Shown here in pieces: positions 9,253 to 62,755 of a DNA stretch of 64,000 nt; position 1 is the stretch's first letter, and each line of letters starts with the position of its first letter. Under the pieces are notes generated by a model that was given only the letters and a program-made list of their open reading frames with translations, ran no database searches and was not told where the DNA came from. The stretch comes from Escherichia phage JLBYU40: the sequence record NC_105514.1; one strand, 5' to 3'. The position numbers and the translations under genes are program-made.

Positions 9253-9255
9253 TAT

Positions 9256-9284: not shown

Positions 9285-9312
9285 AGATTTATAAATTTGA
9301 GAGGAGAAAGCT

Positions 9313-16937: not shown

Positions 16938-16945
16938 AAATTTAT

Positions 16946-16974: not shown

Positions 16975-17008
16975 AGATTCATAAATTTGAGAGAGAGGAG
17001 TTTAAATA

Positions 17009-19176: not shown

Positions 19177-19189
19177 TTTATAAATGTAT

Positions 19190-19218
19190 TTGCTTTCAAC
19201 TCAGTTTTATTATATAAT
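19190..19218 (+). promoter_or_regulatory. Early promoter TTGCTT-N17-TATAAT
   Basis: tatttgctttcaactcagttttattatataat. Confidence 0.7.
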
Positions 19219-19248
19219 ATTTATATAAATTAATGAGAGGGTTGCAAA

Positions 19249-29146: not shown

Positions 29147-29158
29147 ATGATGTATAAT
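29130..29158 (+). promoter_or_regulatory. Sigma70 promoter TTGGCA-N17-TATAAT
   Basis: Overlaps the helicase stop codon. Confidence 0.55.
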
Positions 29159-29229
29159 ATATACATAAATTTGAGAGAGAAAGTTTCGGGTTGATAAGAA
29201 AGTCCGAAGCAGAAAAATAAAAATTTTAG

Positions 29230-30417: not shown

Positions 30418-30424
30418 TAAATAG

Positions 30425-30446
30425 AGGGGCTTCGGCCCCTTTTCTT
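30425..30446 (+). terminator. Intrinsic terminator with UUCG tetraloop
   Basis: AGGGGC-ttcg-GCCCCT followed by TTTCTT. Confidence 0.7.
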
Positions 30447-30454
30447 ATATCTTT

Positions 30455-30932
30455 ATGATTACACAAGATAGACTTAAAGAGCTATTGGACTATGATCCTC
30501 TAACTGGTGTATTTAGATGGAAAGTCTCAAGGGGAAGAGTATCAAAAGGCTCCATAGCAGGGACGGAAGTATGGGTATCTGATAACTATATCAGATTGGA
30601 AATCCGAATTGATGGTAAAAGGTATAAAGCACATCAGCTAGCTTTCCTATATGTGTATGGATACATTCCAGAAGAAATCGACCATAAGGATAGGAATCCA
30701 TTAAATAATGCCATAGATAATTTACTAGACTCTTCTAAGTCACGCAATCAGTTGAAATAGAAACAGGAATAGTAATAAAGAATTACCAAAAGGTGTTTTC
30801 TTAAAACATTCAACTGGTAGGTATTTTGTTCAAATTAAAGGTAAGCATTATGGATATACAGATTCCATACATGAAGCAGAGACTGTAGCAAATGCAGTAT
30901 ATGATAGTCTATTAAGTGAAAATACTATTTAG
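30455..30932 (+). pseudogene. HNH endonuclease interrupted by a +1 frameshift
   Basis: Frame A (30455-30760) has the HNH core HQLAFLYVYGYIPEEIDHKDRNPLNNAIDNL; the AP2-like domain GVFLKHSTGRYFVQIKGKHYGYTDSIHEAETVANAVYD continues in the +1 frame (30756-30932). Confidence 0.6.
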
Positions 30933-35537: not shown

Positions 35538-35575
35538 AAACCCCAGTGGACAAAATCCACTGGGGTTTTCTTTTA
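35538..35575. terminator. Bidirectional intrinsic terminator between early (plus) and late (minus) units
   Basis: CCCCAGTGG-acaaaat-CCACTGGGG flanked by an A-run upstream and T-run downstream. Confidence 0.8.
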
Positions 35576-37351: not shown

Positions 37352-37630
37352 TTACGCCCACTCTCTAAGAGGCTGTTCCAACTGAACTATAAAAGGCTCA
37401 AAGTATTCATAAGTAAAGGATTCACCAAGAATCCTTACATTAACATAGTATCCTTCATTACGGGTGTATCTAGGTTCCTCATCGCCTGGTGCGGAGATTT
37501 CAGTATAAGTATAGCCAATCTCGTCCAGGAGAAACATATCTCGTAACTCTTCATTTTCTTGCCAGTTTATTCCAACTAAGAAATTTTTATATTCGTTCTT
37601 GTCTTTAAATTTTAATATTATATCTTTCAT
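37352..37630 (-). CDS. Hypothetical protein between the two fibre genes (92 aa)
   Basis: Translationally coupled (ATGA overlap with the upstream fibre gene). Confidence 0.4.
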   Translation of the reverse strand: MKDIILKFKDKNEYKNFLVGINWQENEELRDMFLLDEIGYTYTEISAPGDEEPRYTRNEGYYVNVRILGESFTYEYFEPFIVQLEQPLREWA

Positions 37631-42500: not shown

Positions 42501-45334
42501 TCCACAGACTGTTCTCCATCATCCCCTTCAGCTCTAATACGAAAATACAATTTTCTATTTATACCTAGAGCACCGCTGTTCTGGAGAGCAAAATCTGCCT
42601 TATTATACGTTAATAAATAGTCATAAGTATACTGATTTTCAATACGTACACTTCTTAACATCCTATTTTGTGAATCGTGTATTTCAAGGGTATAAAATAT
42701 ACTCTCTATTATATCTTCTTCAGGTATTCTATCCCAGGCTAGTTTCACATCTGGGCCAACAAACTCAGTTACATCTCCGGAAGCAGTATTAGTTACCCTA
42801 AAATTAGATACTACACTAAGGTTTTTAGCAGAGTTAAGTTCTATAGACAGAGTCACCGGGGAACTTCTTCTACCATTAATATCTACTGCTCTTATCTCAA
42901 ATATAGCCAGACCTGCTGGTTCTCCAATTATTTCTTGGATCATACGTTCGTTAGGGTTGGTCTCTAACTGTTGTACTATGTAAGGTTCGGCATGACCTGA
43001 GTGCACAATAGAGTAATAAACTACATTATTGGTTAGACTCGGAAGCCAGGATAACTCACCATTTTTACCTATAGAGCCTACTAAACCACCAGGAGTAGGG
43101 GTATACTTAAAGTCTCTAGGAGGAAGGACATTATTACTAATATCGGGAATATCATTACCGCTATTATCAACCTGCTCAGAGTTGATGAATACATCTTTTC
43201 CATACTCCTGTAGAGTAACATTTATCTTTCCTTCTCTAGAGTTTTCCACTTCGTCTACTAGGAAGTACTTCTTATCCCACCCATAACGGTCGTATGTAAA
43301 TGCAATAGCATCATTAGGCTCAATACCAATGAATTGATATGGCAATGAGAAAGAAAGTGTTCTTGAGTATCTAGATTTCTTAAGTTCCCTATCAGCAAAA
43401 CTTCTTGCAGTATAGTAATTAGTAATATTAGCAAAAGATAGTTGTAATTTTTTATCTAGGTTCTTGTCCTGTTCCTTATACTTGGAATTATAGAACGTAA
43501 TGGAATTAGTTTTCCAGCTAAGGGCGGGATCTACGATAGATGCTTGAACTGAGTTGAATTTATTTCTACCAGTAGTATCTGATAGCTCCAAATCACCGTA
43601 AGTATCTAGAAAATTAATCTCTAACGGAGTATTAGAGTATTTTTCTACAGTAACTCTATACTGGCCAGATAAATTGTTAATAGCCCCACCGTAGGACTCT
43701 AATAAACCTTGCACATTTTTAAATACTGATTCAGATGTATCCAGAATAGTATTCATTTGTACTATTTGTCTATTTTCTGCTAGTGGATCAGTCCACCCAA
43801 CGTATCTCCAATATGGCTGCCAAGATACCTGATAGGATTCATCTATAATATCTAAAATAGCTGCTTCCTGTATTAGTTGCTGAAGAGGGAACTGATCAAT
43901 GGTAATATCAGCACCATATCTATCAGAGGTTAAGTAATCAAGTGTTTGCCAAATACCATTTAAGCTAGTACTATTAGCAGTTACTCTACCATCAGAATGA
44001 TAGACTTTTACTTTTTTACCTTGAATTTCAGCACTAACTTCTGGAATCTCAGTCCTATTTTCATTAATAGTGAAGCGCACCACTGCGTATGCAGTATCTA
44101 GTAGCTTATACCTAGCATCCCAGTATTCAGGGCCATTGCCATTCATATTTTGAAGATAGAATCCGCGGTTTTTAGCGATGTCCACTAATACATCCGAGGC
44201 CGTTTGATCAGATTTTCCGTGATACGTCCAAATCCTTATATCACCATTACCATCATTATATTTATATTCCTGACCATGCACAGAAGGACTACTGGAAGAT
44301 ATTCCTGATGCTATTCTTTGCATGGTGTCTCCGGCTACTTTTTTAACACCGAAACAGGTTCTAGCAGAGCTATCATTAGAATCCATACAAATCATGGGGT
44401 TATCACCAAAGGAGAAATCAAGAAAACCATCAATCTCCCCTTCAGCAAAGGCGTATACGACATAAACTATGTTGGGATTGTGTAGTTCTGTATCAGCAAA
44501 AATTGGTATTCCTGGTATTTTCTGTACGCCATAAACTACTGTGATATATTTAGCAGCAAGGTTAAAATCTATATCTACTTCCTTAGTGACAGTTTCATAG
44601 TATTTTTTAAGGCTGTAGCTTCTAGATAAGCCAAATAGTTTTTTCTTTGATTTTAGCTTATACCTTTCTTCCTGTACTTGGTACTTTGCTAGTATAGATA
44701 TACTCTTATTAGAATGAAAGAACCCATAGTCTTCTTGGTACTCAGGTCTTTTAGCACCGTTAGATGGTACTAACTGTCCAGCTACAACTTCAAGTCCCCT
44801 ATGGGAGGCGTCATCAGTATATCTACCATTAACTCTATCAAAGTCATAGAATTGGTTAGAACAATTCCAGGTAATTGTAGAGGTTCCTACTCCAGAGGTA
44901 CTAATATTATCTTTAATGCCCCCTCCAGTAATCCTCCCCCTAAAGTATAGTAGAGGACCATTTGTATCTGGGTCTACTGGTAGAATAGAACCATCTTCGG
45001 TAATAATTGCTTGATGAATTGATACGGTTCTATCTAAGAAGGATACACCATTTTGCACTAGTTTTAGTACTTCATCCTGTGCTGTACCAGTAATAGTAAA
45101 AGATAGACTACCAATAGATAAATCTCTATTTTGTTTGTGTGTGCTAATAGACTTAACTTTACCCGCCTGGTATAGAATGCCATTATATAGTACATCCCTA
45201 AAATAATCAGTTAAATAAATAAAAGCAGTACTAGTACCAGTAGAGCCAGGTAACTCTAGAGAAATTAGACTAGCAGTTTTTATTTTGCTATTATTTTTTA
45301 AGTAGTTTCTAGCACTATCTAGTATTTTTTTCAT
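42485..45334 (-). CDS. Baseplate hub protein (pb3-like)
   Basis: 949 aa, synteny next to the Dit-like gene. Confidence 0.6.
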   Translation of the reverse strand: MKKILDSARNYLKNNSKIKTASLISLELPGSTGTSTAFIYLTDYFRDVLYNGILYQAGKVKSISTHKQNRDLSIGSLSFTITGTAQDEVLKLVQNGVSFLDRTVSIHQAIITEDGSILPVDPDTNGPLLYFRGRITGGGIKDNISTSGVGTSTITWNCSNQFYDFDRVNGRYTDDASHRGLEVVAGQLVPSNGAKRPEYQEDYGFFHSNKSISILAKYQVQEERYKLKSKKKLFGLSRSYSLKKYYETVTKEVDIDFNLAAKYITVVYGVQKIPGIPIFADTELHNPNIVYVVYAFAEGEIDGFLDFSFGDNPMICMDSNDSSARTCFGVKKVAGDTMQRIASGISSSSPSVHGQEYKYNDGNGDIRIWTYHGKSDQTASDVLVDIAKNRGFYLQNMNGNGPEYWDARYKLLDTAYAVVRFTINENRTEIPEVSAEIQGKKVKVYHSDGRVTANSTSLNGIWQTLDYLTSDRYGADITIDQFPLQQLIQEAAILDIIDESYQVSWQPYWRYVGWTDPLAENRQIVQMNTILDTSESVFKNVQGLLESYGGAINNLSGQYRVTVEKYSNTPLEINFLDTYGDLELSDTTGRNKFNSVQASIVDPALSWKTNSITFYNSKYKEQDKNLDKKLQLSFANITNYYTARSFADRELKKSRYSRTLSFSLPYQFIGIEPNDAIAFTYDRYGWDKKYFLVDEVENSREGKINVTLQEYGKDVFINSEQVDNSGNDIPDISNNVLPPRDFKYTPTPGGLVGSIGKNGELSWLPSLTNNVVYYSIVHSGHAEPYIVQQLETNPNERMIQEIIGEPAGLAIFEIRAVDINGRRSSPVTLSIELNSAKNLSVVSNFRVTNTASGDVTEFVGPDVKLAWDRIPEEDIIESIFYTLEIHDSQNRMLRSVRIENQYTYDYLLTYNKADFALQNSGALGINRKLYFRIRAEGDDGEQSVEWASI

Positions 45335-45945
45335 AAACTTTCCCGTAAATTTAATGAGATGCCGGAATATGTTCCGTTATTATTTAATGTAGATCCGAAA
45401 GCATCACCATTCATGAGTTTTGTCCTAAATAGTATCCCATTAAATACTGGTTTTTCAGCTCCAGTAGTAGTTACAAATAAATCAGGATATACGTTAATAG
45501 ACCATGAATTACCTGACTTGTTAAATGATGTTATTTTATATACTTTTGGGTGGTTAGACAGCTTAAATAGATCCCCCGGTTTTGGAGTACCTGTAAGAAG
45601 TCCTTTTGTATCCATAGTTATATTAGAACCCTTCTGTCCAGCAGGTATATTTACTAGACTAGTATTACCTCTAACTCTAAAAGCTTCGTATTGGGGTAAT
45701 ATAACATCTATATAACCACCAGTCCTTTTGTATTCTAGAATAAAAGCATCTAGAACACCATATTCATCTGGAAATAATTCTGGATAAGAAATATTTATAC
45801 CCCAGTATTGAGCAGATACTTTAACTTCGTTAACTTTACCATTTGGTAACTCATCACGAATTACTGGGTCATTATCAATCAGGTTAACACTTTCGAATCC
45901 TAAGCCTGAAAGTTCTGGATTCGTGTATGGGTCTGGTAATCTCAT
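45331..45945 (-). CDS. Distal tail protein (pb9-like)
   Basis: 204 aa immediately downstream of the tape-measure gene; very strong RBS ATTAAAGAGGAGAAATTAACT before the ATG. Confidence 0.6.
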   Translation of the reverse strand: MRLPDPYTNPELSGLGFESVNLIDNDPVIRDELPNGKVNEVKVSAQYWGINISYPELFPDEYGVLDAFILEYKRTGGYIDVILPQYEAFRVRGNTSLVNIPAGQKGSNITMDTKGLLTGTPKPGDLFKLSNHPKVYKITSFNKSGNSWSINVYPDLFVTTTGAEKPVFNGILFRTKLMNGDAFGSTLNNNGTYSGISLNLRESL

Positions 45946-46019
45946 AGTTAATTTCTCCTCTTTAATAACAATATTATAATAGTATTAGAAAATTTTATCA
46001 AGAAATTTTTATTTTTCCA

Positions 46020-46046
46020 TAAAGAAAAGGAGGACTCAAAGTCCTC
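46020..46046 (-). terminator. Intrinsic terminator after the tape-measure gene
   Basis: GGAGGACT-ttg-AGTCCTCC followed by TTTTCTTT on the minus strand. Confidence 0.6.
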
Positions 46047-46054
46047 CTCCAGTT

Positions 46055-49000
46055 TTAAGAATTTCCTAATGTTTTCAGACTAGCACCGTTCTCATTCAGA
46101 GCTAATTCTACTGCGTCTCTTAGAGCACCACTATTACTAGAAGCAAACTCTCTAAAACTTGCAGCATCCATAGCACTAATATTCAGGATGATAGGTCTTC
46201 CTGAAGTTGAGTTAGACGAGGTTTTTAGCTCATCATTAGGTGTAGCTTTCATAGGAACCATAGGGGTAACTACTTCTGTACCATGCTCACCCATTTGATA
46301 GCTAACCCCTGGATACATATTACCACCCTCAGCACGAGGAACGAAAGAGTTGGCACTACCTATACCTTGATCGCCACGAATATAAGATAGTTCACCTGCA
46401 TTAGCAGACATGGACACATCTATATTCTTCTGACGCTCTCCTAAGGTTAAGTAACTAGTTGTATCCGCCCCAGAATCAGCAATACTTGACATACCAGATG
46501 CAGAAGATGCTTGTGCTAATGCCAATGCACCCGCTAAACCTGCCGCAACCATTAAAGGAATAGAGAACGGGTATGGTACAGCTGTTGCCGCTTGCATTAC
46601 AGCTACTGCAGTTTGGATGATAATCTGCTTCTTAGCTGCGTCTTGTTGAATCTTCAGCTTTTCAGCTTCCAACTTCTTCAACTTAGCTTTAGATGCTTCT
46701 GATTTACCATCACGTTTCTGCTCCGCTGCGATAGCTGCATCAATAGCACTAACCTGTTGACTAGTACTATACTGAATCATAGAAGATACAGTTTGCATGC
46801 CAGAAGCAATCAAGGAGGTAGTATCTAGGGATCCCTGAGAGAACTGAATCATAGCGTTAGTTAAGTTACCCATACTTTGAGCCACAGCGGTTGCTTCAGA
46901 ATTTAATTCAGATAGTTTAGAGATTGCCTGATCATAAGAAGCCATTCTATTTTGCATATCAGCAAAATCTTTATCCTCCCCAGATAGTCCAGTTGTAGGA
47001 GTATATACAGCACCTACAGAAGATCCCACCTGTTGCTGCATCTGGATATCTCTCTGTTTTCTAAGCTGCTCTAAGGCCGCCGAAGTTTTATAAATCTCAT
47101 TACGATATTTAATTTCTTCCTCAGTATTGCCCTTAGACAGCTCCAGCTGTTGCTGCAGAATGGATAATCTTTCAGTAAGAATTTGAGATTGACCAGTAAC
47201 ATTCCTCTGCGTTTGGCTGACCTCTAGCGCATCCATGAGAGCTGATACATGTGAGGCAGTTGCCTGTTTCTCCGCTTCCCATATTTCTCTGCTTATTTGT
47301 GCTTGAGCACGTCTAGACTGTTCTGCCTCTTTCTGTTTGTCCGCTTGTTTTGTATACCATTCGTACTTCTCTTTCTCTATAGTTAGTTCTAGTTTTAGCT
47401 GAGCTAATCTATATTGAGTAGTAGTCATAGTGCGGTCATTCAGAAGAGCTATCTCACGATCTACACCCAGGATTTTATCTGTATAATCCTTAACCTTCTT
47501 CTGGGCCTCCATACCCTGATTGGTAAGTTTAAGTTTCTCCAGCTGAATTTTTTCAATTTCTTTCTCAACAGCTTTATTTCCCTGGTTTGTTTGAAGAACA
47601 CGGCGTAAAGCAGCTTCTTGCTCTTCTAACTGTTGCAACTCTAAACGTCTACCAGCTTCCTGAGCCTTTTCCTTATCCTTAGTTTGATTATACACATCGG
47701 CTATTTTCTGTTGAACTGCTAACTGATTTTTAGTTTCATTACCAGTTAGTTTAACATACTCGGACAAGGCCTGAGAAGCAGTTTTCATCTCAGATAACGT
47801 ATTATAGCCTAAATTAAGATTTTTAACATACTCATCTGCACTTTTACCCGTACCTAGAGATAGAGATTCTATGTTTTTTATAGCATCTGCTAACGTAGCA
47901 CTAGTTTTAGCAGCAGTATCTGTATTCTGAGCAACGTTCTGTATATCATTAGCTAAGTCACTAGCAGTTTTCTTAGTCTGATTGTACGCTTTCTGCTGCT
48001 CAGTTAGTCCTTTTAATACAGTAGAGTTAAAATCGTATACAGCATCAGGATCAGTAGTATCTCTCTGTAGATTAATTTGCTTCTGAAACTCGGGGTTAGC
48101 TTTTGCAGCAGCAGCTCCAGCAGCTTGATACGCTGATTTCCAAGCATTGAGGTTTTCAGTAGAATCCTCTACTTCTTTACCAAGTCTAGTTACTTGTAAA
48201 CCCATAGCTGCAGTTTCTGCTACAAATTGCTTATTGGCCTCCGAAGCACCTGCTGCTGCAAGACCAACAGGAATACCTTCACCAACTTGACGTATAGCTA
48301 GTTTTGTATAGAAATCTGCTTGTTCCATTCGTTTATCGAACTCAGATTTTAGCTTATTACGCTTATCAAGAGATTCCTTATACATATCTAGAGCTTTATT
48401 ATAGCCTTCTTCAGAAGCAGCTAAACTTAAAGCAACAGCACCAACGTTGGTAGGGTCTATCTGTCTATTAGTTTTTTCTTGAGCTCTAGCTGCCTCAGCA
48501 GATATAGAAGCCTGAGATGTATAAAATACTGTGTTGATAGCATCAATTACTGGCCCTAAATACTTAGCAGCAGCTTGTTGTATTTTTCTTAGCGCAGCAT
48601 CTGCATTAGCAGCAAATTGCTCCCATGGAGTTGCACGTAGTACTTCATCTAGGTAGCCAAACCGCTTAGTAGATTCAGCAATTACCGCGTTAGCGTATGC
48701 TTGTTGTTTCTGGAAAGTGGTAAGACTATTAACATTATATGTTATACCTGTGTTTGCAGCATTTAACTGTTTAACATAATCAGCGTATGCGTCATTAAGA
48801 CGTATGGTGACACCAAGTTCATCCAGAAGTTCGATTTCTTGTTTAGATACACCCTTAATTACACGGTTAAGTGCGTCAGTCATATCAACGCCAAGAACAG
48901 CAGCAGCACGACGAGCTACTAAACCAAATTTATTAAGTTGTTCGGCATCAAATCCATAAGCAGACGCTGAAGATGCCTGTCTCATTGCTTCTTCAAAAGA

Positions 49001-49735
49001 AATAGCATATCCAGCAGCTTCTTGTAGTGATCTAGCAAGGGACTGAACAGGAGTACCTGTCTGAGTACCTACTATAACACCAAATTTTTCTAGACGATTT
49101 AGCTGATCACCTAGTTTAAGCTGTTCGAATGCAGATTGCAAAACGAAGATGTTGGAAGCAAGAGCTGCATACATAATAGGTAAACTACCACCGATTTTAG
49201 CCATTGCCGCAAAATCACGAGTTGCACCACGTGCTGAACCAGAAGTATTACCAATAGCTCTAGAAGCTCTACCAGCGGCACCAGCAGTATCATTAAAACC
49301 CCTAGCTGTGCCACCTAATGCTCTATTAGTATCATATAATCTATCCTGGACTTTTTCTGTTGCAGCTGCAACATCATTACCCATTGTTTTAACAGATCTA
49401 GAAACTCCATCGAATCCAATTTCTAGTTTATCTGTTACTTCAATAAGCTGGATAGCCAGGTAGTCTAGCTTATCACCAATACCATCAATGGATTTAGTGA
49501 TACCAGCCATACCCCTACTAGCTTGCATTTTAGTAAGACTTTTCGCTGCTCTGTCTGCTGCCCTCTCAATGGAATAAAGAGTTCTGGGCATTTTACCTAA
49601 CTGCTCATTTGTCAGTTCGGAAGCAGCAGCAGCATTTTCCAACGCATCAGATACGTTTTCAATAGACTTTGCAGTACGAGTTGCCCCCTTCTGTTTAACG
49701 TCTATTAGTAATTCTCGTATTAGCTTATCAGTCAT
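46055..49735 (-). CDS. Tail tape-measure protein (pb2-like)
   Basis: 1226 aa, long coiled-coil/alpha-helical content, C-terminal hydrophobic segment. Confidence 0.85.
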   Translation of the reverse strand: MTDKLIRELLIDVKQKGATRTAKSIENVSDALENAAAASELTNEQLGKMPRTLYSIERAADRAAKSLTKMQASRGMAGITKSIDGIGDKLDYLAIQLIEVTDKLEIGFDGVSRSVKTMGNDVAAATEKVQDRLYDTNRALGGTARGFNDTAGAAGRASRAIGNTSGSARGATRDFAAMAKIGGSLPIMYAALASNIFVLQSAFEQLKLGDQLNRLEKFGVIVGTQTGTPVQSLARSLQEAAGYAISFEEAMRQASSASAYGFDAEQLNKFGLVARRAAAVLGVDMTDALNRVIKGVSKQEIELLDELGVTIRLNDAYADYVKQLNAANTGITYNVNSLTTFQKQQAYANAVIAESTKRFGYLDEVLRATPWEQFAANADAALRKIQQAAAKYLGPVIDAINTVFYTSQASISAEAARAQEKTNRQIDPTNVGAVALSLAASEEGYNKALDMYKESLDKRNKLKSEFDKRMEQADFYTKLAIRQVGEGIPVGLAAAGASEANKQFVAETAAMGLQVTRLGKEVEDSTENLNAWKSAYQAAGAAAAKANPEFQKQINLQRDTTDPDAVYDFNSTVLKGLTEQQKAYNQTKKTASDLANDIQNVAQNTDTAAKTSATLADAIKNIESLSLGTGKSADEYVKNLNLGYNTLSEMKTASQALSEYVKLTGNETKNQLAVQQKIADVYNQTKDKEKAQEAGRRLELQQLEEQEAALRRVLQTNQGNKAVEKEIEKIQLEKLKLTNQGMEAQKKVKDYTDKILGVDREIALLNDRTMTTTQYRLAQLKLELTIEKEKYEWYTKQADKQKEAEQSRRAQAQISREIWEAEKQATASHVSALMDALEVSQTQRNVTGQSQILTERLSILQQQLELSKGNTEEEIKYRNEIYKTSAALEQLRKQRDIQMQQQVGSSVGAVYTPTTGLSGEDKDFADMQNRMASYDQAISKLSELNSEATAVAQSMGNLTNAMIQFSQGSLDTTSLIASGMQTVSSMIQYSTSQQVSAIDAAIAAEQKRDGKSEASKAKLKKLEAEKLKIQQDAAKKQIIIQTAVAVMQAATAVPYPFSIPLMVAAGLAGALALAQASSASGMSSIADSGADTTSYLTLGERQKNIDVSMSANAGELSYIRGDQGIGSANSFVPRAEGGNMYPGVSYQMGEHGTEVVTPMVPMKATPNDELKTSSNSTSGRPIILNISAMDAASFREFASSNSGALRDAVELALNENGASLKTLGNS

Positions 49736-49751
49736 GTTTTATTTTTCCCAA

Positions 49752-49783
49752 TAAAAAAGGCTCTGGGCAAATCACCCAGAGCC
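49752..49783 (-). terminator. Intrinsic terminator immediately upstream of the tape-measure start codon
   Basis: GGCTCTGGG-tgatttg-CCCAGAGCC then TTTTTT on the minus strand, then ATTGGGAAAAATAAAAC-ATG. Confidence 0.65.
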
Positions 49784-49818
49784 AAGCCTCATCGTGGAAC
49801 GCCCATTGGAGGAAACTT

Positions 49819-50187
49819 TTACCGTGCACGAGATCTAGCATGTGGCTTAACGTTAGGAATCCTTCCGTTTTGCGGTTTATGCTTCTCAGCACGTTTACGT
49901 GCAGCATCTACAGCTTTAGCATCAAATATATTGATAATGTGTAGAACAAATTCTTTCTCTATAGGATCAGTAATCCCATAAATATCAAATAAAACACCTA
50001 GAGCAGCCTTATCTTTACCTATAAAGATAGGAAAGTCACCTGGTATGAAGCAGTCAATTAGACTGTTATAAATATTCATACTAATAGATACAATAGGTGG
50101 AAAATCTTCGAGTTCAACAGGCATAGCCTTAGGATCAGGTTCTATACCCATTGACTCACAAAGTATTAAATATTGTTGTTTGGTCAT
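49819..50187 (-). CDS. Putative tail assembly chaperone
   Basis: 122 aa with basic tail; position between tube and tape-measure genes. Confidence 0.35.
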   Translation of the reverse strand: MTKQQYLILCESMGIEPDPKAMPVELEDFPPIVSISMNIYNSLIDCFIPGDFPIFIGKDKAALGVLFDIYGITDPIEKEFVLHIINIFDAKAVDAARKRAEKHKPQNGRIPNVKPHARSRAR

Positions 50188-50248
50188 TTTAGATGCTGAG
50201 CTTTTAATACATTTATCTGCAAAATCAGCAACAGCATCTAGGAGTTCT

Positions 50249-50668
50249 TTACGCTTTTGGGCTACGAAAAGTGTCTAAGTGGAACACTGTCTGGTTGATC
50301 CAAGAATCAAACGCAGCAGAGTTCTGCATGAGCATTACAGCATTATCGCGGCTAAAAGGAACTTCAGTAGCAGGATCAGCATCTGTTTCAATCAGCATCA
50401 GTTTTTCAACGTCACCTACAGTCAAACCGGTCCAACCTTTAATAGCTGCGTCAACGAAGGCTTCAATGAACTTATCATCATCCTGTACCTGAATCAAAGT
50501 ACCATTAACCCATTCATCGCGTTTAGCAGAAGAAATAACACGTTTAGAGGTAGCACGAGACATATAGTTAAGTTCTAATTTAAAGTTCGGCATACCTGGG
50601 TAGGAAAGAGTAATAGTACGAGTATCAAGAGTAATATCTTTTAAATTAATCATTTTTAATTTCTCCAA
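50249..50668 (-). CDS. Putative tail assembly chaperone (acidic)
   Basis: 139 aa; position. Confidence 0.35.
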   Translation of the reverse strand: MEKLKMINLKDITLDTRTITLSYPGMPNFKLELNYMSRATSKRVISSAKRDEWVNGTLIQVQDDDKFIEAFVDAAIKGWTGLTVGDVEKLMLIETDADPATEVPFSRDNAVMLMQNSAAFDSWINQTVFHLDTFRSPKA

Positions 50669-51548
50669 AGAAATCTATTCTCACTGGGTCTGAAGAAGCA
50701 GTAGGTATAATATCCCACTCAACTCTATACACATCTGAGAAATCTAGGCGTTTTGTAATACGTGCTGAAGGAAAATCTATAGAAATATTATTATTTCTTA
50801 TATTTAAAGGTACATCTGTCTCCGGTTCGATATTGTAAACCATATCTCCTGCAAAACGTTTTAAGTAATATAGAGAAATGGTTGCCGAAGCATTCATTTC
50901 ATTTACATAGGCTCTTTTATTATTATAAATTTTATTTATATCAAAAACACTCTTATCTTCTCTCCAGGAGCACTGCTGTTGGAAAGATAAAGAGGCAGAA
51001 AGAAGACCGGGTAAGATGCTACCATTAGTAGAAGCTATTACTGGGCTGTAAGACATTACTTCACCCTGTATAATAGAAGCTGCTTCCCTATACGTAGATA
51101 CTTCGGAAAATTTTCCCGATTCAATACCGACATTAAGAATTGGTATATTTTTATCTAAAGAAAAATCTACTGTAGATACATAGCAGTTCTCAAAATATAC
51201 ACAGTTATTATCCTTATTTACTATATAGATATTAAACATAATAGGTTCAATATTGCTACTATATAGTGGAAGTAGGAAAGTATTACCTTTTCTATCAAAA
51301 CCTAACCATTCAAAGAAGTTAGCTTCAGTAAGCGTATTACTAAAATTTACTGCTAGAGAGATAGAAGAAGGAGTTTGAGCATTTATAATAGAGTCTGCAT
51401 AGTTAGTTCTACGATGAACAGTTCTACGAAGAGTTTTAAACTCTTCGTAGGAGGTTTGTACATCATAGTTTGATAGGGCATCAAAATGAAATGCCCTACC
51501 ATCATACTCAACTATAACTTTTGACTCTCGCATTAGAGAGTAGTACAT
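50646..51548 (-). CDS. Tail protein (p140-like)
   Basis: 300 aa; synteny. Confidence 0.4.
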   Translation of the reverse strand: MYYSLMRESKVIVEYDGRAFHFDALSNYDVQTSYEEFKTLRRTVHRRTNYADSIINAQTPSSISLAVNFSNTLTEANFFEWLGFDRKGNTFLLPLYSSNIEPIMFNIYIVNKDNNCVYFENCYVSTVDFSLDKNIPILNVGIESGKFSEVSTYREAASIIQGEVMSYSPVIASTNGSILPGLLSASLSFQQQCSWREDKSVFDINKIYNNKRAYVNEMNASATISLYYLKRFAGDMVYNIEPETDVPLNIRNNNISIDFPSARITKRLDFSDVYRVEWDIIPTASSDPVRIDFFGEIKND

Positions 51549-51552
51549 TTAT

Positions 51553-52959
51553 TTAACCACCAGCACTAACTGTGATAGTTTTAGTACCTTCTACACCAGA
51601 ACCGTCTTTAGCTACAGCCTTCACAGTAACTGCACCAGTTTTAGAAGCATCAGCTGTTAATAACCCAGATTCTGCATCAATCGTAGCTGCGTTACCACTA
51701 GAAATAGACCAAGTTACAGCCTTATTAGTAGCTTCTGGAGGTGTTACCTCAACAGACATCTGTAAAGTATTACTATTTGTTACAGAAACAGCCTCACCTG
51801 CAGATTTAACTGTGATTGATTCAACTAGTTTTGGTGGAGTTTTAGCACCATCTCCTGTAGCAATCAGATTAGCCACAGTGGTTTTAGTATACTTGTTAGA
51901 AAAACCAAGATAACCTTCATCACCAGTATCCAGATCTGTAGGGATAGCTTTAAACTCTACTGAAGTACCAAGTACATCATCAGTCTCAATAGTAGGAATA
52001 TTAACATGCGCCTGTTTAGCAACTAACACAGCTGCCGGACGTTCATCATCGTATTCACCACCAAGGATAAGTGCAATCTCAAACTTGTTAACTACCTTAA
52101 GGGTTTTAATTAGATCTTTATATAGCTCCATAGATCCTAGAGCTTTATCGTTAAGGTAAGCTGTCAGAGAACCAGTTAGTTCAAATGCGCCAGTAAATGA
52201 ACCAATTGGAATATTTACACGGGACATAATATTTGGGGTTAGGTATGTGATGTTATTATTAATGGTGAAAGTACCACCAGTAATAGGGATATCATATGCC
52301 TTATCAGAATCCATATCCTTAATTTTCAGGATAGTCAGTTTGTTCTTAATATAAGAACTCTGAATAGTCATATAAGTTTCATCATCAATACCTACCACAT
52401 CTGGATCAAAGGGCTGAGCATCCAAAGGAATAAGCTGATTACCATTACCAGACCAAGTTACACGACCAATATCCTCAATATCAACGTTAACTTCTGCCTG
52501 GTTGATCTGGCAAGAGTCAATATAGCTCCATGCTTTGTCAGTAAGAATGTAGATGTGCAGCATAGCCAACTCATGATAAGAGTTATCTTTAAAGTTAACC
52601 ATGAAGTTAGCTTCATTATTATGCGCACCTGTGTCTCCCTCAAGGTTTAGTGCTTTACCACTAGAAAGAGCATGCCATAACATGTAGTCGGGAACAATCT
52701 GTTTATTAGAGGTTTTATCCTTGTATGGCAGGATATAAGTAGAAAAACTCCACTCAGCCGCATTTAAGGAATCGTTAAAACGTTTAGAACCACGAGTAGG
52801 ACGCGGACCAGCTTCGTTAACAGTAATATCTGTTGAGTTACTGTCCTGACCCCAAGAAATATCATCCTGAACTAGAATCTCTTGCGTGTTGGTCTTATCG
52901 TGACCAGTCTTAACCGTAGACACGAAGATTCGAGTATTACGTAATAGTTGTAAAGACAT
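51553..52959 (-). CDS. Major tail tube protein (pb6-like) with C-terminal Ig-like domain
   Basis: 468 aa; C-terminal BIG2-like ITVKSAGEAVSVTN...TVKAVAKDGSG; AGGAGAAAATAATTAA RBS. Confidence 0.7.
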   Translation of the reverse strand: MSLQLLRNTRIFVSTVKTGHDKTNTQEILVQDDISWGQDSNSTDITVNEAGPRPTRGSKRFNDSLNAAEWSFSTYILPYKDKTSNKQIVPDYMLWHALSSGKALNLEGDTGAHNNEANFMVNFKDNSYHELAMLHIYILTDKAWSYIDSCQINQAEVNVDIEDIGRVTWSGNGNQLIPLDAQPFDPDVVGIDDETYMTIQSSYIKNKLTILKIKDMDSDKAYDIPITGGTFTINNNITYLTPNIMSRVNIPIGSFTGAFELTGSLTAYLNDKALGSMELYKDLIKTLKVVNKFEIALILGGEYDDERPAAVLVAKQAHVNIPTIETDDVLGTSVEFKAIPTDLDTGDEGYLGFSNKYTKTTVANLIATGDGAKTPPKLVESITVKSAGEAVSVTNSNTLQMSVEVTPPEATNKAVTWSISSGNAATIDAESGLLTADASKTGAVTVKAVAKDGSGVEGTKTITVSAGG

Positions 52960-52985
52960 TTAATTATTTTCTCCTAATCTGTAAC

Positions 52986-53471
52986 TTATCTGCGAAGTGA
53001 CCTACGTGGAGGCTGATACCTCACTGTTACATTTATTTCTGCTAAACCATATGGGGCCAGTAGACCCTCATCTGTACTAACTGATGTAATGCTCATATCA
53101 GTCGCCTCACATGGGAAGGTCGATCCATTAGGTTTACTAACAGTATATTCTAAATTTCCACCTGTGTCAATAACGGTTTTTATATCCGCTACGAGTTTTT
53201 CAAGTTGCTCTTGAATGTCTGTTTTCTCTTTATCATACACCAGGATAGGAAGTTCTAAAAACATCCACTGTTGACCTGAGGGAAGATACTGCCCAGTTTC
53301 AGTTCCGATATGAACTGCAACATAAGGAAACTCTCGTATCTCCTCAAACTTATAAGTTTGACGTGAGACGTTTCCATACAAGTTATTAAAATATTCATCT
53401 GGTTGGGAGCCATCCATTTGTTTGGCTATTCGATCAACCAGAGCTTGTGCTATACTTGTTCTGTGATCCAT
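52986..53471 (-). CDS. Putative tail terminator/completion protein
   Basis: 161 aa; synteny. Confidence 0.4.
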   Translation of the reverse strand: MDHRTSIAQALVDRIAKQMDGSQPDEYFNNLYGNVSRQTYKFEEIREFPYVAVHIGTETGQYLPSGQQWMFLELPILVYDKEKTDIQEQLEKLVADIKTVIDTGGNLEYTVSKPNGSTFPCEATDMSITSVSTDEGLLAPYGLAEINVTVRYQPPRRSLRR

Positions 53472-53474
53472 TTA

Positions 53475-54242
53475 TTAGGTTCCTTGATTAACCTTAATTT
53501 TGTATCTGGAGTGAATTAAGTCTCTTGCAGCTTTAGCTATCGCCTCTCCAATTAATCTTTGAGGGTTTCTAGCACCTGGGTAGGGTCGTAATGACAATCT
53601 TCGATATGTGGATACTGCAGGATTAAATACTGAATATGGACGTACCATATAATTATATGTAACATTTAATTCAGGAGCACCTTTGCTAGTTCCAACATCT
53701 CTAAGCATAACATCTTTAACTTTTAGAGAATTTGCAAAACGACCTGTTCTAAATTTAAGTGGAGCTCCTGCTTTTTTCATATCCTTTATTAAGTATTCTT
53801 TAGCAACCAACTCCAGAATAACCTTCATATTGCTATTAGATACAAAACGTCCTGAAGCACCTGTTACTGCACCAGAATATCCATCTTCTACGTCTCTAGG
53901 ATCCCCAAAGTTTACTTGAACTCTACCGGTAGAACGTTTTTTACCTACAGAGGATTTTTTACCAGCAGTTGCTTGAATAAGACTTTCTAAAGCACCTAAG
54001 TCTCCTGTTAGATCTAAGCTAGAAGAAACTGCTTTTAGAATAGAAGCGGTCCTAACATTAAGGAGATCTTGGGATACAGGTTTTGAGAACTTAAAAGATA
54101 CCTGAGCAACAGTACCATCCCTAGTAGGATCTTTTAGTCCTGTTTCAACAGAATATACAACAGTATTCTTATTGTTCTCGGAACGTCCAACATTATCTAG
54201 CTGCTCCTTAATAATTTGTGTAGCTAAATCAGAAAGAGACAT
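53475..54242 (-). CDS. Putative neck/head-tail joining protein
   Basis: 255 aa; synteny. Confidence 0.35.
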   Translation of the reverse strand: MSLSDLATQIIKEQLDNVGRSENNKNTVVYSVETGLKDPTRDGTVAQVSFKFSKPVSQDLLNVRTASILKAVSSSLDLTGDLGALESLIQATAGKKSSVGKKRSTGRVQVNFGDPRDVEDGYSGAVTGASGRFVSNSNMKVILELVAKEYLIKDMKKAGAPLKFRTGRFANSLKVKDVMLRDVGTSKGAPELNVTYNYMVRPYSVFNPAVSTYRRLSLRPYPGARNPQRLIGEAIAKAARDLIHSRYKIKVNQGT

Positions 54243-54754
54243 TATACTCTCCTGTAAACTTCAATAATAGTACGAATATGCTCTGGAATACCAGACTTAG
54301 TATTATTAAAAGTAACTGTTTCTCCACCAATTGTTTTAGCTTGGCGATAATCCTGTTTGTGCCAATGATCTACTAGCATACATGCTGCAAGTTTGAGATC
54401 CTCAGGTATTGGATTAAATCCACCTTGTGTATATGCTACATCCATATAACCTTCTGGAGGATTAAATTTAAGAAGTATAACCCCATCAGAGTACAGCCTA
54501 TATTGCTCGGGGTCTATCTCCTTGTCGTTAATAGTCATTTTGGTTACTGAAGTAGCCGAGGGAGAACTTAAAAAGTATTTTTTACGAGTAGGTTTTGTAT
54601 TGATTAACTGGTCTACCGCATCAGCATCATCCATACCTAAAAGGCTAGTAATCAGCGCATTGGCAGCAGTAATCATCATCTCTACTCCAGATTCTAATTC
54701 AGGTCGTTTTAAACTACCATATAATCTATAATCTTCAGCTGTGATGATTTGCAT
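54242..54754 (-). CDS. Putative head completion protein
   Basis: 170 aa; first gene after the capsid terminator. Confidence 0.4.
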   Translation of the reverse strand: MQIITAEDYRLYGSLKRPELESGVEMMITAANALITSLLGMDDADAVDQLINTKPTRKKYFLSSPSATSVTKMTINDKEIDPEQYRLYSDGVILLKFNPPEGYMDVAYTQGGFNPIPEDLKLAACMLVDHWHKQDYRQAKTIGGETVTFNNTKSGIPEHIRTIIEVYRRV

Positions 54755-54768
54755 TTATTTTTCCCAAT

Positions 54769-54792
54769 AAAAAAGGAGAGCCGAAGCTCTCC
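54769..54792 (-). terminator. Intrinsic terminator after the major capsid gene
   Basis: GGAGAGC-ttcg-GCTCTCC then TTTTTT on the minus strand, then ATTGGGAAAAATAA-ATG. Confidence 0.75.
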
Positions 54793-54813
54793 TTATCGGC
54801 TGAAAAGCCTGTA

Positions 54814-56190
54814 TTAAGCGGTAGCGTAAGCACCGGATACAACACCATTACTAAAGTAACGTTGCAGGTTAACACGCTGAGTAACGTAGTACGCATCACG
54901 CTGTTTACCAGCTTGGCGCTCGCGTTCAACGGTGACAGCACGCTGACGTGGCATTACGAAGTTATCTTTATAAACGATAACTGCGAACTCTTTCTCAGCC
55001 GCTTTAGCTGGGAAGTACTCAGAAACTACAACCGGCAGACCATAAATACGACCAACCTGACCTTGCAGTTTAACAGCATCGTTACCAACCTGTGCAACAT
55101 CCTGCCATTCTTCATCTTCCAGCAGATCGTAGTAAGCATCCATAGATACGATCAGTACCAGTTTGCTCAGTTTCAGACCATGACGGCCCAGTTTACGACG
55201 CAGTTTAGAGATAGTTTTAGCAGTTACCAGAACAGTACCATCAGCTTTAGCTTCAGTAGTAACTTTAGCACCATCATCTTCAGCCAGTTTCAACAGACCT
55301 TTCGGCTTACCAGTACCATCACCAGTCATAAAAGCTTCTTCGATAGAAACAGCGTGTGCTTCAATCAGACGCTTACGCAGCAGCGGCAGCAGGGAGAAGA
55401 TTGCATCTTCTTCAGTTTCATCAGTAATGAAGGACTTAGCAGCCAGTTTGTAGGTTTTAAAACTAATTTCAGTTAAGGTACCTTTAACTTCGTTACCAAC
55501 AGTAGCATCAGTACCGTAGGAACCAGCATCTACCCAAGTAGCTTTTCCAGCTTCAGGTTCAACCAGCATAGTAAGAATTTTGCTGGACATTGGCAGTTCA
55601 TCGAACAGTGCACCAACTACTAACTCTTTCTGTAGGTCACGAAGGATACGGGTAGAGAAAATAGTTTCGTAGTTTTCACTGGAAACCTGTACAGAGGAAG
55701 AAGTATTAACAGCTTTAACGTGGGCCTTACCATGTTCAGTTTCAAATACATCCTTCTCCATCATATAAGACAGGAGAACTAGTTTCTCAACTTCATCTTC
55801 AAAAGCTTCCTGAGTACCATACAGTGCTTTAGCTACGCTATCACCTACGAAGGAACGACCTTCACGAGCTGCTAGCAGAGATTTAATTTCATCCTGAAGA
55901 CCAACAATGGTTTCCTGCTGCTTTTCTACAGTCTGTGCGAACAGTTCTGCACTCTTTTTAGATTTTTCATCCAGGGACTTAACCAGTTCCAGAGCTTGTT
56001 CCAGTTTCTGACGATCTTCGCCAACTGCTTTAGAAACCAGGTCATTCATACGAGCCAGTTCTTTTTCTTCCTGCTCTTTACGCATACGTTCAGCTTCCTG
56101 AGCTTTCTGAGCAGCAGTCAGACCTTCCAGAGATTTAGCCAGATCACCCAGACCAAGTTCTTCTTTCAGCTTATTAATATCAATAGTCAT
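54814..56190 (-). CDS. Major capsid protein precursor with N-terminal scaffold-like coiled-coil domain
   Basis: 458 aa; N-terminal 150 aa charged coiled coil; downstream of the protease gene. Confidence 0.8.
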   Translation of the reverse strand: MTIDINKLKEELGLGDLAKSLEGLTAAQKAQEAERMRKEQEEKELARMNDLVSKAVGEDRQKLEQALELVKSLDEKSKKSAELFAQTVEKQQETIVGLQDEIKSLLAAREGRSFVGDSVAKALYGTQEAFEDEVEKLVLLSYMMEKDVFETEHGKAHVKAVNTSSSVQVSSENYETIFSTRILRDLQKELVVGALFDELPMSSKILTMLVEPEAGKATWVDAGSYGTDATVGNEVKGTLTEISFKTYKLAAKSFITDETEEDAIFSLLPLLRKRLIEAHAVSIEEAFMTGDGTGKPKGLLKLAEDDGAKVTTEAKADGTVLVTAKTISKLRRKLGRHGLKLSKLVLIVSMDAYYDLLEDEEWQDVAQVGNDAVKLQGQVGRIYGLPVVVSEYFPAKAAEKEFAVIVYKDNFVMPRQRAVTVERERQAGKQRDAYYVTQRVNLQRYFSNGVVSGAYATA

Positions 56191-56207
56191 TTTTAAATAA
56201 TTCTCCG

Positions 56208-56840
56208 TTATTCTTTAACGTAGCCTAAAGCTATCGCAAGTTTTTCTAGTTCAGAAAGATTACGTTCTTGAGCTGGGACAGCTTTAGAACTTATTGCAGT
56301 AAAAGATTTACGCCATTCAGTATAATCATGACCATTCATGCTCTTAGCGAGATTGAATGTTGAGTCCTGATTACAAGGTACAGAAACTACCGAAACTTCG
56401 TATAGTTCTAAATCTTTAATAATAAATATATCAGTAGCTTCATCCCACTCTGCATCTAGGCAGCGGAATCCGATACTAAAAGTTTTCAGTACACCGTTTT
56501 TAATTAGTGAAAAGATAGCCGGATCGGAACTTTCATAGATCTCACATTCGATTTCAAGACCCATTTCAGTAGGGTTAAGATCAATACACTTACCGATTGG
56601 ACGACGATGATCGTGTCCGAAAAGAATAATCGGGTTTTTCATATAGTTAGTAAGTGCATTAGACGTTTTCCACGCAGAAGCAGGAATTACGTCACCAGCG
56701 CGATCTTTACTAATTGTATTAGCGAATCCACGGATTTTTACAACGCCCTCTTTGGATTCGCTATCAATAGATTTAATATAAGCATCTAAATGAACGGGTG
56801 CTGATTTTAACTTGTTATAGTCAATAGCAGCTTGTGTCAT
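56208..56840 (-). CDS. Prohead protease
   Basis: 210 aa between decoration/portal and capsid genes. Confidence 0.6.
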   Translation of the reverse strand: MTQAAIDYNKLKSAPVHLDAYIKSIDSESKEGVVKIRGFANTISKDRAGDVIPASAWKTSNALTNYMKNPIILFGHDHRRPIGKCIDLNPTEMGLEIECEIYESSDPAIFSLIKNGVLKTFSIGFRCLDAEWDEATDIFIIKDLELYEVSVVSVPCNQDSTFNLAKSMNGHDYTEWRKSFTAISSKAVPAQERNLSELEKLAIALGYVKE

Positions 56841-62670: not shown

Positions 62671-62695
62671 ATAATCTCCTATTATAAAAATGTAT

Positions 62696-62724
62696 TTGCT
62701 TTCATCCCTCTATTTTGCTATAAT
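62696..62724 (+). promoter_or_regulatory. Early-type promoter TTGCTT-N17-TATAAT for llp
   Basis: tatttgctttcatccctctattttgctataat. Confidence 0.7.
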
Positions 62725-62755
62725 ATATTCATAAAATAGAAATGGAGAGATAAAT

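Follow-up and report, generated by a model that had tools for sequence, protein, structure and literature searches.

In phage T7, genes 11 and 12, which lie after capsid gene 10, are expressed only through read-through of the terminator Tphi (PMC5592923). The window analysed here, meaning the whole stretch of DNA of 64,000 nt, belongs to a T5-like phage (Tequintavirus) with approximately 95% identity to known isolates. Three junctions of its late operon are considered: site A between the chaperone and tape-measure genes, site B between the capsid and head-completion genes, and site C after the tape-measure gene. As with Tphi, the terminator of site B directly follows the major capsid gene, and the genes downstream of it have no promoter of their own. 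However, Tphi acts on T7 RNA polymerase, and read-through at sites A and B is what we infer from their architecture. As T5-like phages use the host sigma-70 RNA polymerase (PMC7472727), the terminators of sites A and B should be ordinary intrinsic terminators of the host type. Those of T5, BF23, HdH2 and Slocum, and two of those in PR1, are at homologous positions and have near-identical sequences. T5 also has terminator-promoter junctions, at P-G25 and at early promoters; site C has the same layout, whereas sites A and B have no promoter.

Two other kinds of elements bear comparison. The promoter-early stem-loops (PeSLs) of T4-type phages, a subject of Arbiol et al. in 2010, are repeats that reportedly mediate gene shuffling. 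Sites A and B resemble them as short, conserved regulatory stem-loop sequences repeated between genes of one phage genome. However, PeSLs have a promoter, many copies and variable gene flanks, whereas sites A and B represent two true copies, without a promoter, next to conserved core structural genes that are syntenic across the family. A mobile regulatory cassette of the PeSL type was rejected on these grounds (two copies, no promoter, syntenic neighbours). As for translation, U- or A-rich sequences are said, after Boni et al. in 1991 and Komarova et al. in 2005, to aid starts with a weak Shine-Dalgarno (SD) sequence by binding ribosomal protein S1. At sites A and B, similarly, a weak SD is preceded by U-rich sequence and followed by an A-rich spacer, but here the U-rich stretch doubles as the terminator U-tract, and any enhancer role of it is putative.

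The junctions at sites A and B comprise the following features:

49759..49783, minus strand: terminator A hairpin GGCTCTGGGTGATTTGCCCAGAGCC, with stem GGCUCUGGG-loop-CCCAGAGCC (terminator scan, RNA fold)
49736..49758, minus strand: flank A TTTTTTATTGGGAAAAATAAAAC, with U-tract TTTTTTATT, weak SD GGGA and A-rich spacer AAAATAAAAC
49733..49735, minus strand: ATG of the tape-measure gene (gene 46055-49735)
54798..54809, minus strand: small hairpin GGCU-UUUC-AGCC, upstream of terminator B (RNA fold)
54775..54792, minus strand: terminator B hairpin GGAGAGCTTCGGCTCTCC (GGAGAGC-UUCG-GCUCUCC), 18 nt past the capsid stop codon region
54755..54774, minus strand: flank B TTTTTTATTGGGAAAAATAA, with U-tract TTTTTTATT, weak SD GGGA and A-rich spacer AAAATAA
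54752..54754, minus strand: ATG of the head-completion gene (gene 54242-54754)

The sequences at the three sites were found where the original prediction had placed them. A 23-nt repeat, CCTTTTTTATTGGGAAAAATAAA, occurs in exactly two perfect minus-strand copies, one ahead of the tape-measure gene (A) and one behind the capsid gene (B), and a third copy with 4 mismatches (46030-46008) follows the tape-measure gene at site C. As only 0.01 23-mers with at most 4 mismatches to the repeat are expected, according to 100 first-order Markov simulations of the window, we rejected a chance origin. The copy number of the repeat is exactly two per T5-like genome. It is made up of CC, the last two bases of the stem, a 9-nt U-tract (UUUUUUAUU), GGGA and an A-rich spacer to the AUG. 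The repeat is thus two ordinary signals packed together, a terminator U-run and then a weak ribosome-binding site for the gene that follows.

As for the first signal, a hairpin with a U-run was detected at all three sites. The hairpins are G+C-rich and each follows the end of a gene, on the strand that codes for it; at A and B the U-tract UUUUUUAUU is directly 3' of the stem. RNA folds beat those of shuffled sequences (z of -2.9 and -3.3), with stem energies of -19.1 kcal/mol at A and -12.0 kcal/mol at B. The three terminators are already known from T5 and its relatives: they are annotated at all three junctions in T5 (NC_005859), BF23, HdH2 and Slocum and at A and C in PR1, the wording being 'putative rho-independent transcription terminator' in NC_005859 and ARNold predictions in BF23. 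The T5, BF23, HdH2, Slocum and PR1 records make no comment on a shared flank, a ribosome-binding role or family-wide conservation. A bidirectional terminator was rejected, as no U-run follows the hairpins when the other strand is read (A and B, by eye), and so was coding across site A, since the 59-aa ORF at 49728-49907 has a 1-nt indel in close relatives and reading frames vary between genera. A search of positions 45000-56500, both strands, against Rfam 15 yielded chance-level matches only (E > 1), and we found no published transcript mapping (term-seq or RNA-seq) of T5-like phages in the literature.

As for the second signal, the GGGA:anti-SD duplex has an energy of -4.2 kcal/mol, inside the range of -0.1 to -9.3 found across the late operon, and ends 9 nt (A) or 6 nt (B) from the ATG. 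GGGA is therefore a weak SD at canonical spacing. In Vibrio phages, the GG position is occupied by GGAG, GGAGG or GGGG. The original prediction had stated that there is no normal SD and had suggested an unusual translation-initiation element; the former was overstated, and the latter is a weak SD in its normal place, with GGAG or GGAGG there in Vibrio relatives. It was right that the flank has a role beyond termination, but that role is an ordinary one: the flank provides the downstream gene with its ribosome-binding site. The start codons of the downstream genes are conserved at both sites, with M1 of the head-completion protein invariant in a six-genus protein alignment and the N-terminus of the tape-measure protein, MTDKLIRELL, similar in other enterobacterial-host lineages. 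The ATG is 23 nt from the hairpin end at A and 20 nt at B; at 20 junctions from 11 lineages this distance is 17-24 nt, and exactly 20 nt in 10 of the 20.

Site C is organised differently:

46029..46047, minus strand: terminator C hairpin GGAGGAC-UUUGA-GUCCUCC, after the tape-measure gene (terminator scan)
46002..46028, minus strand: flank C, with U-tract TTTTCTTTAT, then A/T-rich tract GGAAAAATAAAAATTTC adjoining the -35 hexamer
45973..46001, minus strand: sigma-70 promoter TTGATA-17-TATAAT, homologue of T5 P-G25 (promoter scan)
45943..45961, minus strand: strong SD AGAGGAG (-9.1 kcal/mol) and ATG (45945) of the distal tail protein gene

Its U-tract is UUUUCUUUAU, and the A/T-rich tract AAAAATAAAAATTTC abuts the -35 hexamer, which is the position of an UP element. 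The promoter matches 11 of 12 consensus positions at 17-nt spacing, and the T5 RefSeq record has a 'promoter P-G 25' at the homologous place; the HdH2 record gives a value of -13.0 for terminator C. Site C is thus a terminator and then a promoter, with the A-tract at the position expected of an UP element. Three terminator-to-ATG junctions had been predicted; A and B are such junctions, but C, with its promoter, its strong SD and an ATG (45945) 83 nt from the hairpin, is not. Site C owes its likeness to A and B to a different signal, the A/T-rich tract ahead of a promoter, and the sequence of its flank is not conserved in other genera. Most other strong terminators in the window, like that of site C, are followed by a sigma-70 promoter that has an A/T-rich tract ahead of it.

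At A and B, the promoter scan found nothing promoter-like from the hairpin to the ATG, and the space there is too short for a promoter. The BF23 record displays a Sigma70Pred 'hypothetical late promoter' over site B. A promoter hidden in the flank was rejected, as the promoter scan had no sigma-70-like match at A or B. The first promoter downstream of site A is that of site C, at 46001-45973, and the first one downstream of site B, at 53170-53142, is a homologue of T5 P-J5:

53142..53170, minus strand: internal promoter TTGACA-17-TATACT, T5 P-J5 homologue (promoter scan and T5 annotation)

Since no promoter fits in at A or B, the head-completion and tape-measure genes would be reachable solely via read-through of terminators B and A, which would make these terminators attenuators rather than unit boundaries. 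Most probably, A and B are Rho-independent terminators of the late operon, each abutting the translation start signals of the next gene, and would act as attenuators via read-through. The genes behind them presumably encode low-copy proteins. Compared with the capsid and chaperone products, which are abundant, such proteins would receive a smaller mRNA dose because of the attenuators, and their translation would be cut further by the weak SD. Attenuation setting the capsid-to-neck and chaperone-to-tape-measure ratios, one of the roles suggested at the outset, fits the architecture of A and B and appears to be the best reading; it would entail that termination in vivo is partial, that downstream mRNA comes from read-through and that protein ratios are affected. 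On the other hand, the hairpins and U-tracts at A and B both look strong, and read-through might need a phage factor.

The conservation of both junctions is evidence of strong constraint. Intergenic diversity is 0.023 at A and 0.046 at B versus 0.20-0.34 at third codon positions, and it is lower than the diversity at second codon positions; across genera, the proteins encoded next to the two junctions are less conserved than the junctions themselves. At site A the T-run is invariant in a nine-sequence alignment, and compensatory pair changes in the stem are found in KpGranit, RP7, JSF10 and the metagenomic relative L388. Both-side changes affect 5 of the 16 predicted pairs, every one inside the terminator stem, with L388 in addition. 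Stem B has a G-C to A-U pair change in lineages L022 and L023, and the stem at this site is different in Vibrio phages. The small hairpin upstream of terminator B retains its GGC/GCC stem, with different loops, in KpGranit, Slocum, PR1, DU_PP_V and AAS21. The claim that hairpins differ while the flank is conserved fails when phages are compared, as across genera hairpins and flanks are both conserved. A hairpin end approximately 20 nt from the AUG would, in our judgement, be close to the minimal spacing that keeps the start region outside the stem. With such spacing almost every base would have a job. The high degree of conservation would then be explained, as would the convergence of both junctions on one sequence.

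Alternatively, the flank, with or without the hairpin, might be a specific recognition site whose sequence itself is read, for RNase processing, by an antiterminator or by a translational repressor. Intergenic diversity below that of second codon positions would suit such a site, as would the retention of TTTTTTATTGG at 14 of 20 tabulated junctions (13 of 15 in enterobacterial-host lineages) and the unexplained conserved element beside terminator A described below. Hairpin B, also in favour of recognition, is identical in six lineages, with one added pair in the Slocum stem, and the protein next to it has only 29-66% identity to that of the window in those lineages (51% in Slocum). Such invariance of the hairpin exceeds the needs of a generic terminator and speaks against the attenuation model. 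However, unrelated phages and bacteria from many phyla have the same flank behind hairpins of unrelated sequence, an argument against a factor specific to Demerecviridae. The hairpin-plus-TTTTTTATTGGRRAAAATAAA-plus-ATG junction is present in a Klebsiella 49-kb phage, a Yersinia jumbo phage, a metagenomic siphovirus, where it is immediately ahead of the tape-measure gene, and, among the matches listed, many IMG/VR contigs. Among the bacterial matches listed, 37 of 121 have an adjacent hairpin and 14 of those 37 an ATG as well; as the search patterns already required an RBS-like sequence, these figures prove that the layout recurs rather than how frequent it is. Such recurrence indicates a generic, convergent layout, and we rejected the flank as an element specific to T5-like phages. 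In T5 itself, moreover, an inserted endonuclease-like gene comes straight after TTTTTTATT, and another RBS serves the tape-measure gene. In L388, the only new lineage obtained in a metagenome search for more diverse relatives, GGG has given way to other bases and the SD is a separate AGGTGA. Together with the lack of an Rfam match, these observations make a recognition site very unlikely.

Shared descent or gene conversion, rather than selection on each base, might also have made flanks A and B identical. In T5-like phages A equals B over 23 nt, and in Epseptimavirus-type loci (L027-L029) the identity extends to the ATG. Furthermore, related genes for CapR-domain endonuclease-like proteins are inserted in T5 (site A) and in L022, L023 and L025 (site B), which marks both junctions as places of DNA exchange. 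Duplication of a terminator-RBS cassette, recombination at module boundaries or repair tracts of homing-type genes could be invoked. Nevertheless, A and B differ in most other genera, each keeping the consensus of its orthologues, which points to constraint and not to homogenisation within a genome. As the hairpins beside the flanks are unrelated and convergent copies exist in unrelated genomes, we consider descent quite unlikely to explain the identity, all of these routes taken together.

It is tempting to speculate that the flank pairs with sequences upstream of the terminator (UUCCACGA at A, CUUAAU around the capsid stop codon at B), hiding the SD and thereby coupling translation. RNAalifold predicts a UUCC:GGRA helix around terminator A, and in single-sequence folds the SD guanines pair with the conserved UUCC at a probability of approximately 0.96 for Slocum and Thalassa, compared with 0.45 for the window. 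At site B of T5-like phages the value is 0.93, versus 0.03 with shuffled upstream sequence. However, shuffled upstream sequences performed comparably at 18 of 19 junctions (at least 11% of shuffles reach the observed value), and an SD pairs with any C/U-rich sequence. The upstream partner is nearly invariant, so true covariation cannot be scored. A long-range helix sequestering the SD was thus rejected as a general mechanism, and such coupling seems extremely improbable at A and B.

Beyond the attenuation that we favour, site A has a further conserved feature:

49784..49815, minus strand: conserved non-coding element TTTCCTCCAATGGGCGTTCCACGATGAGGCTT, downstream of the chaperone stop codon and ahead of terminator A (lineage comparison)

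This element of approximately 32 nt is present in all 11 Demerecviridae lineages sampled, in degenerate form in DU_PP_V. It displays a 1-nt indel polymorphism and has no common reading frame. Its matches outside Demerecviridae are G+C-rich coding sequences without a terminator; unlike the flank, it thus appears to be family-specific, a distinction upheld in the sequence comparisons. We found no described counterpart in Rfam or in the T5-related literature, and a sigma-54 promoter, boxA/nut, an ops site and the T5 nick site were rejected as none fitted in an informal comparison with their consensus sequences. Possibly, although on balance we doubt it, the element (UUUCCUCCAAUGGGCGUUCCACGAUGAGGCUU, 49815-49784), the terminator and the flank together form a cis-regulatory RNA found throughout Demerecviridae that sets read-through into, or translation of, the tape-measure gene. 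Such an RNA might, for example, bind a phage factor or RNA polymerase, or act as an RNA that derives from the 3' UTR and carries an anti-SD-like CCUCC. In that case, the 'cassette' of site A would make up the 3' portion of a larger element not described before. The approximately 32-nt element is a candidate for experimental follow-up.

As a discovery, the outcome is modest, since the terminators were already annotated and a terminator abutting a ribosome-binding site is a standard compact layout. Its usefulness lies in the evidence of constraint, in an element for follow-up and in a transcription map of the late operon. The map gives a promoter, the genes from portal to capsid, terminator B, the neck genes and the P-J5 promoter (53170-53142), where transcription restarts ahead of the tail tube gene; from there it runs from tail tube to chaperones, through terminator A to the tape-measure gene, and on to terminator C with the P-G25 promoter and the baseplate genes.

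Across 45800-55000, the window shares about 95% identity with Tequintavirus genomes, among them MET_P1_179_112, ECOP18, FFH1 and HdH2. The minus strand carries its late structural genes, arranged as in T5:

54814-56190 (capsid), minus strand: portal, decoration protein, protease and capsid genes
54242-54754, minus strand: head completion gene
between head completion and tail tube, minus strand: two neck/tail-completion genes
51553-52959, minus strand: tail tube gene
after tail tube, minus strand: gene of a 300-aa tail protein
after the 300-aa tail protein gene, minus strand: two chaperone-like genes, homologues of T5.143 and T5.142 (49819-50187)
46055-49735, minus strand: tape-measure gene
45331-45945, minus strand: distal tail protein gene, then pb3

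At 50187-50275 on the minus strand, the T5.142 homologue has essentially no Shine-Dalgarno sequence (SD; -0.1 kcal/mol). Its frame continues upstream without a stop through the final codons of the T5.143 homologue, passing a CCCAAAA run, in a +1 (or -2) relation; a -1 slip would reach a stop within a few codons. Together, these features suggest a tail-chaperone frameshift product of unusual direction.

A repeat finder and a pattern search identified CCTTTTTTATTGGGAAAAATAAA as a 23-nt exact repeat on the minus strand, at 49760-49738 and 54776-54754, with a third copy carrying four mismatches at 46030-46008. Simulating the window 100 times with a first-order Markov model gave an expected 0.01 23-mers within four mismatches of it; the repeat is real. 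The three terminator-to-ATG sequences of the original prediction are all present, but its description of the junction is fully valid only at site A, before the tape-measure gene, and site B, between the capsid and head-completion genes. The hairpin of site A (49783-49759) stops 23 nt short of the tape-measure ATG, and that of site B (54792-54775) 20 nt short of the head-completion ATG. Site C, after the tape-measure gene, has behind its hairpin (46047-46029) and U-run first an A/T-rich tract, next a canonical promoter (TTGATA-17-TATAAT, 46001-45973) and then a strong SD, AGAGGAG, before the ATG is reached at 45945. Upstream of terminator B, after the capsid stop codon, lies a small hairpin, GGCU-UUUC-AGCC (54798-54809, minus strand); its GGC/GCC stem is kept with varying loops in five other genera and is absent from the Vibrio phages.

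After the stem, the flank reads 5' to 3' UUUUUUAUU (a 9-nt U-tract), GGGA, an A-rich run and AUG. GGGA, also the SD of pb3, pairs with the 16S rRNA 3' end at -4.2 kcal/mol and ends 9 nt (tape measure) or 6 nt (head completion) before the AUG; pairing energies range from -0.1 to -9.3 kcal/mol among 14 late-operon starts. The SD at sites A and B is thus weak but correctly placed. The original interpretation is partly right: what had been proposed as an unusual initiation element is an ordinary, weak SD, and the attenuation suggested alongside it is plausible. Whether a long-range helix hides this SD was considered as well, as RNAalifold and single-sequence folds suggested one; in a control, however, pairing with the SD was about as good after shuffling of the upstream sequence in 18 of 19 junctions, and given this failure we regard such a helix as highly improbable.

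At A and B, a promoter scan detected no sigma-70-like site in the stretch from hairpin to ATG; promoters follow most other strong terminators of the window. Several other elements were noted. At 30423-30457 on the plus strand, the hairpin AGAGGGGCTTCGGCCCCTTT of an early-region terminator (30423-30442) is followed 12 nt on by the ATG of a 101-aa ORF, through a flank (TCTTATATCTTT) that is unrelated to that of the late operon and devoid of SD-like purines. At 35538-35568, a perfect 13-14-bp hairpin that has T-runs on each strand resembles a bidirectional terminator. A family of ~53-nt repeats (9251-9303, 16941-16993, 19185-19237, 29125-29177 and 62691-62743) corresponds to T5 early promoters, the copy at 16941 presumably matching the classic P_N25 sequence. 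Finally, 21-nt tandem repeats at 39248-39661, with nine overlapping copies of a 99-nt unit, belong to a 790-aa ORF (37627-39999, minus strand) that probably encodes a repetitive structural protein.

There is nothing unusual about the feature, and it has been annotated before. In T5, the RefSeq record carries a 'putative rho-independent transcription terminator' at all three homologous positions, promoter P-G25 directly after the third and promoter P-J5 within T5.146. The same three terminators are annotated in HdH2, BF23 and Slocum, and those of sites A and C in PR1. The counterpart of P-J5 in the window is a strong promoter-like sequence, TTGACA-17-TATACT (53170-53142, minus strand), within the 161-aa gene that precedes the tail tube gene.

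We compared the three junctions in 11 Demerecviridae lineages: T5-like, Epseptimavirus-type, Klebsiella KpGranit, Serratia Slocum, Proteus RP7, Providencia PR1, Pectobacterium DU_PP_V, Pantoea AAS21, and Vibrio JSF10, Thalassa and pVp-1. All 11 share one gene order and have the three intergenic gaps; identity to the head-completion protein of the window is 66% in KpGranit and 29-33% in RP7, PR1 and JSF10. Sites A and B have in every lineage a hairpin, a T-run, a purine patch, an A/T-rich spacer and the ATG, with 17-24 nt from hairpin end to ATG over 20 tabulated junctions (exactly 20 in 10 of them). In phages that infect enterobacteria, TTTTTTATTGG and a weak SD (-3.3 to -4.2 kcal/mol) are mostly retained; the SD of DU_PP_V site B is stronger (-7.1 kcal/mol). 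The GGG of the flank marks the SD position, since Vibrio phages have GGAG, GGAGG or GGGG there (-5.5 to -10.6 kcal/mol), and a metagenomic relative (L388) that has lost GGG carries a separate AGGTGA, 6 nt upstream of the ATG. Compensatory changes occur in stem A; six lineages share an identical stem B, in place of which Vibrio phages have a different stem; start codons are kept. Within the group of T5-like, Epseptimavirus and Klebsiella phages, intergenic nucleotide diversity amounts to 0.023 at A, 0.046 at B and 0.092 at C, compared with 0.20-0.34 at third codon positions of the downstream genes. Strong purifying selection acts on these junctions. Between genera, site C keeps its terminator-plus-promoter layout but not the GGAAAAATAA sequence; its likeness to A and B in T5-like phages therefore stems from a different signal, the A/T-rich tract that precedes the promoter. 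The identity of A and B in T5-like phages could be due to gene conversion or cassette duplication; this is nevertheless unlikely, as each site in most other genera is closer to its orthologue than to its partner in the same genome. In the Vibrio Demerecviridae, a ~250-aa ORF after terminator A (L096 15013-15774, L097 14974-15732) precedes a shorter tape-measure gene, suggesting a tape measure split into two genes.

Each T5-like genome contains the exact 19-mer TTTTTATTGGGAAAAATAA twice; this 19-mer also stands after an unrelated hairpin right before the tape-measure ATG of an unrelated metagenomic siphovirus. A 49-kb Klebsiella phage (GGCTCC-TTTT-GGAGCC followed by TTTTTTATTGGAGAAAATAAAATG) and a Yersinia jumbo phage have near-identical junctions. 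Scanning IMG/VR for TTTTTTNNNGGRRAAAATAAA gave at least 102 matches outside T5-like genomes, at least about 40 with a strong hairpin just upstream; in most of the hairpin-bearing matches listed, NNN is TAT or ATT, and the ATG usually comes immediately. Searching one genome per bacterial species for TTTTTTATTGGRRAAAATAAA gave at least 121 matches; among those listed, 37 of 121 have an adjacent hairpin, 14 of these 37 also an ATG, and sources include Bacillota, Bacteroidota, Pasteurellaceae, Vibrionaceae and Acinetobacter. As both patterns already require a sequence resembling a ribosome-binding site (RBS), these scans measure recurrence, not frequency. Such matches in unrelated phages and bacteria nevertheless suffice to show that the cassette is not special to these phages and that its layout has arisen repeatedly and independently. 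In T5, the endonuclease-like gene T5.141 (L137 6099-6851) is inserted at site A directly after TTTTTTATT, and the tape-measure start then lies behind CAGGAAAACATTAGATG, so the 3' half of the cassette can be replaced. That the flank is a specific factor-binding or processing site is very unlikely, given this replaceability in T5 and L388 and the same junction in unrelated genomes. Endonuclease-like genes related to T5.141 are found at site B of other T5-like phages (L023 9376-9948, also L022 and L025), and both junctions are thus insertion hot spots. The inserted genes have the Pfam CapR homology domain and a weak, below-cutoff treble-clef zinc finger match; neither insertion is present in the window.

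We favour reading A and B as two leaky intrinsic terminators, which would act as attenuators inside the operon. Terminator and RBS signals are present and conserved; partial termination there may in turn affect protein ratios. The U-tract of each terminator runs directly into a weak RBS. Capsid is encoded upstream of terminator B and the neck proteins behind it, P-J5 would then restore transcription for the tail tube protein, the chaperones precede terminator A and the tape measure follows it, and terminator C with P-G25 opens the baseplate unit. The T5 virion contains hundreds of copies of the capsid protein, about 120 of the tail tube protein and about 3 of the tape measure. The same logic applies to T7 Tphi, as genes 11 and 12 are expressed solely via read-through of this terminator after capsid gene 10 (PMC5592923). 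Host-type terminators are consistent with the transcription of T5 late genes by host sigma-70 RNA polymerase (PMC7472727). We found no transcript-end data for T5-like phages in the literature.

A further element of ~32 nt, TTTCCTCCAATGGGCGTTCCACGATGAGGCTT (49784-49815, minus strand), is situated upstream of terminator A, after the stop codon of the T5.142 homologue. It occurs in some form in all 11 Demerecviridae lineages sampled, with the core TCCTC-N-GGGCRTTCCACGA in nine, Vibrio phages included, a near copy (GTTCCTAGA) in AAS21 and a degenerate, C-to-T-rich copy in DU_PP_V, and it contains an anti-SD-like CCUCC. It is non-coding, as shown by a 1-nt indel between close relatives and by frames that disagree between genera. 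The matches obtained beyond Demerecviridae are coding sequences, rich in G+C and lacking a terminator; the window holds no second copy, Rfam gave no match, and RNAalifold and single-sequence folds gave no secondary structure common to all lineages. This conserved element is the sole part of the locus that appears new.
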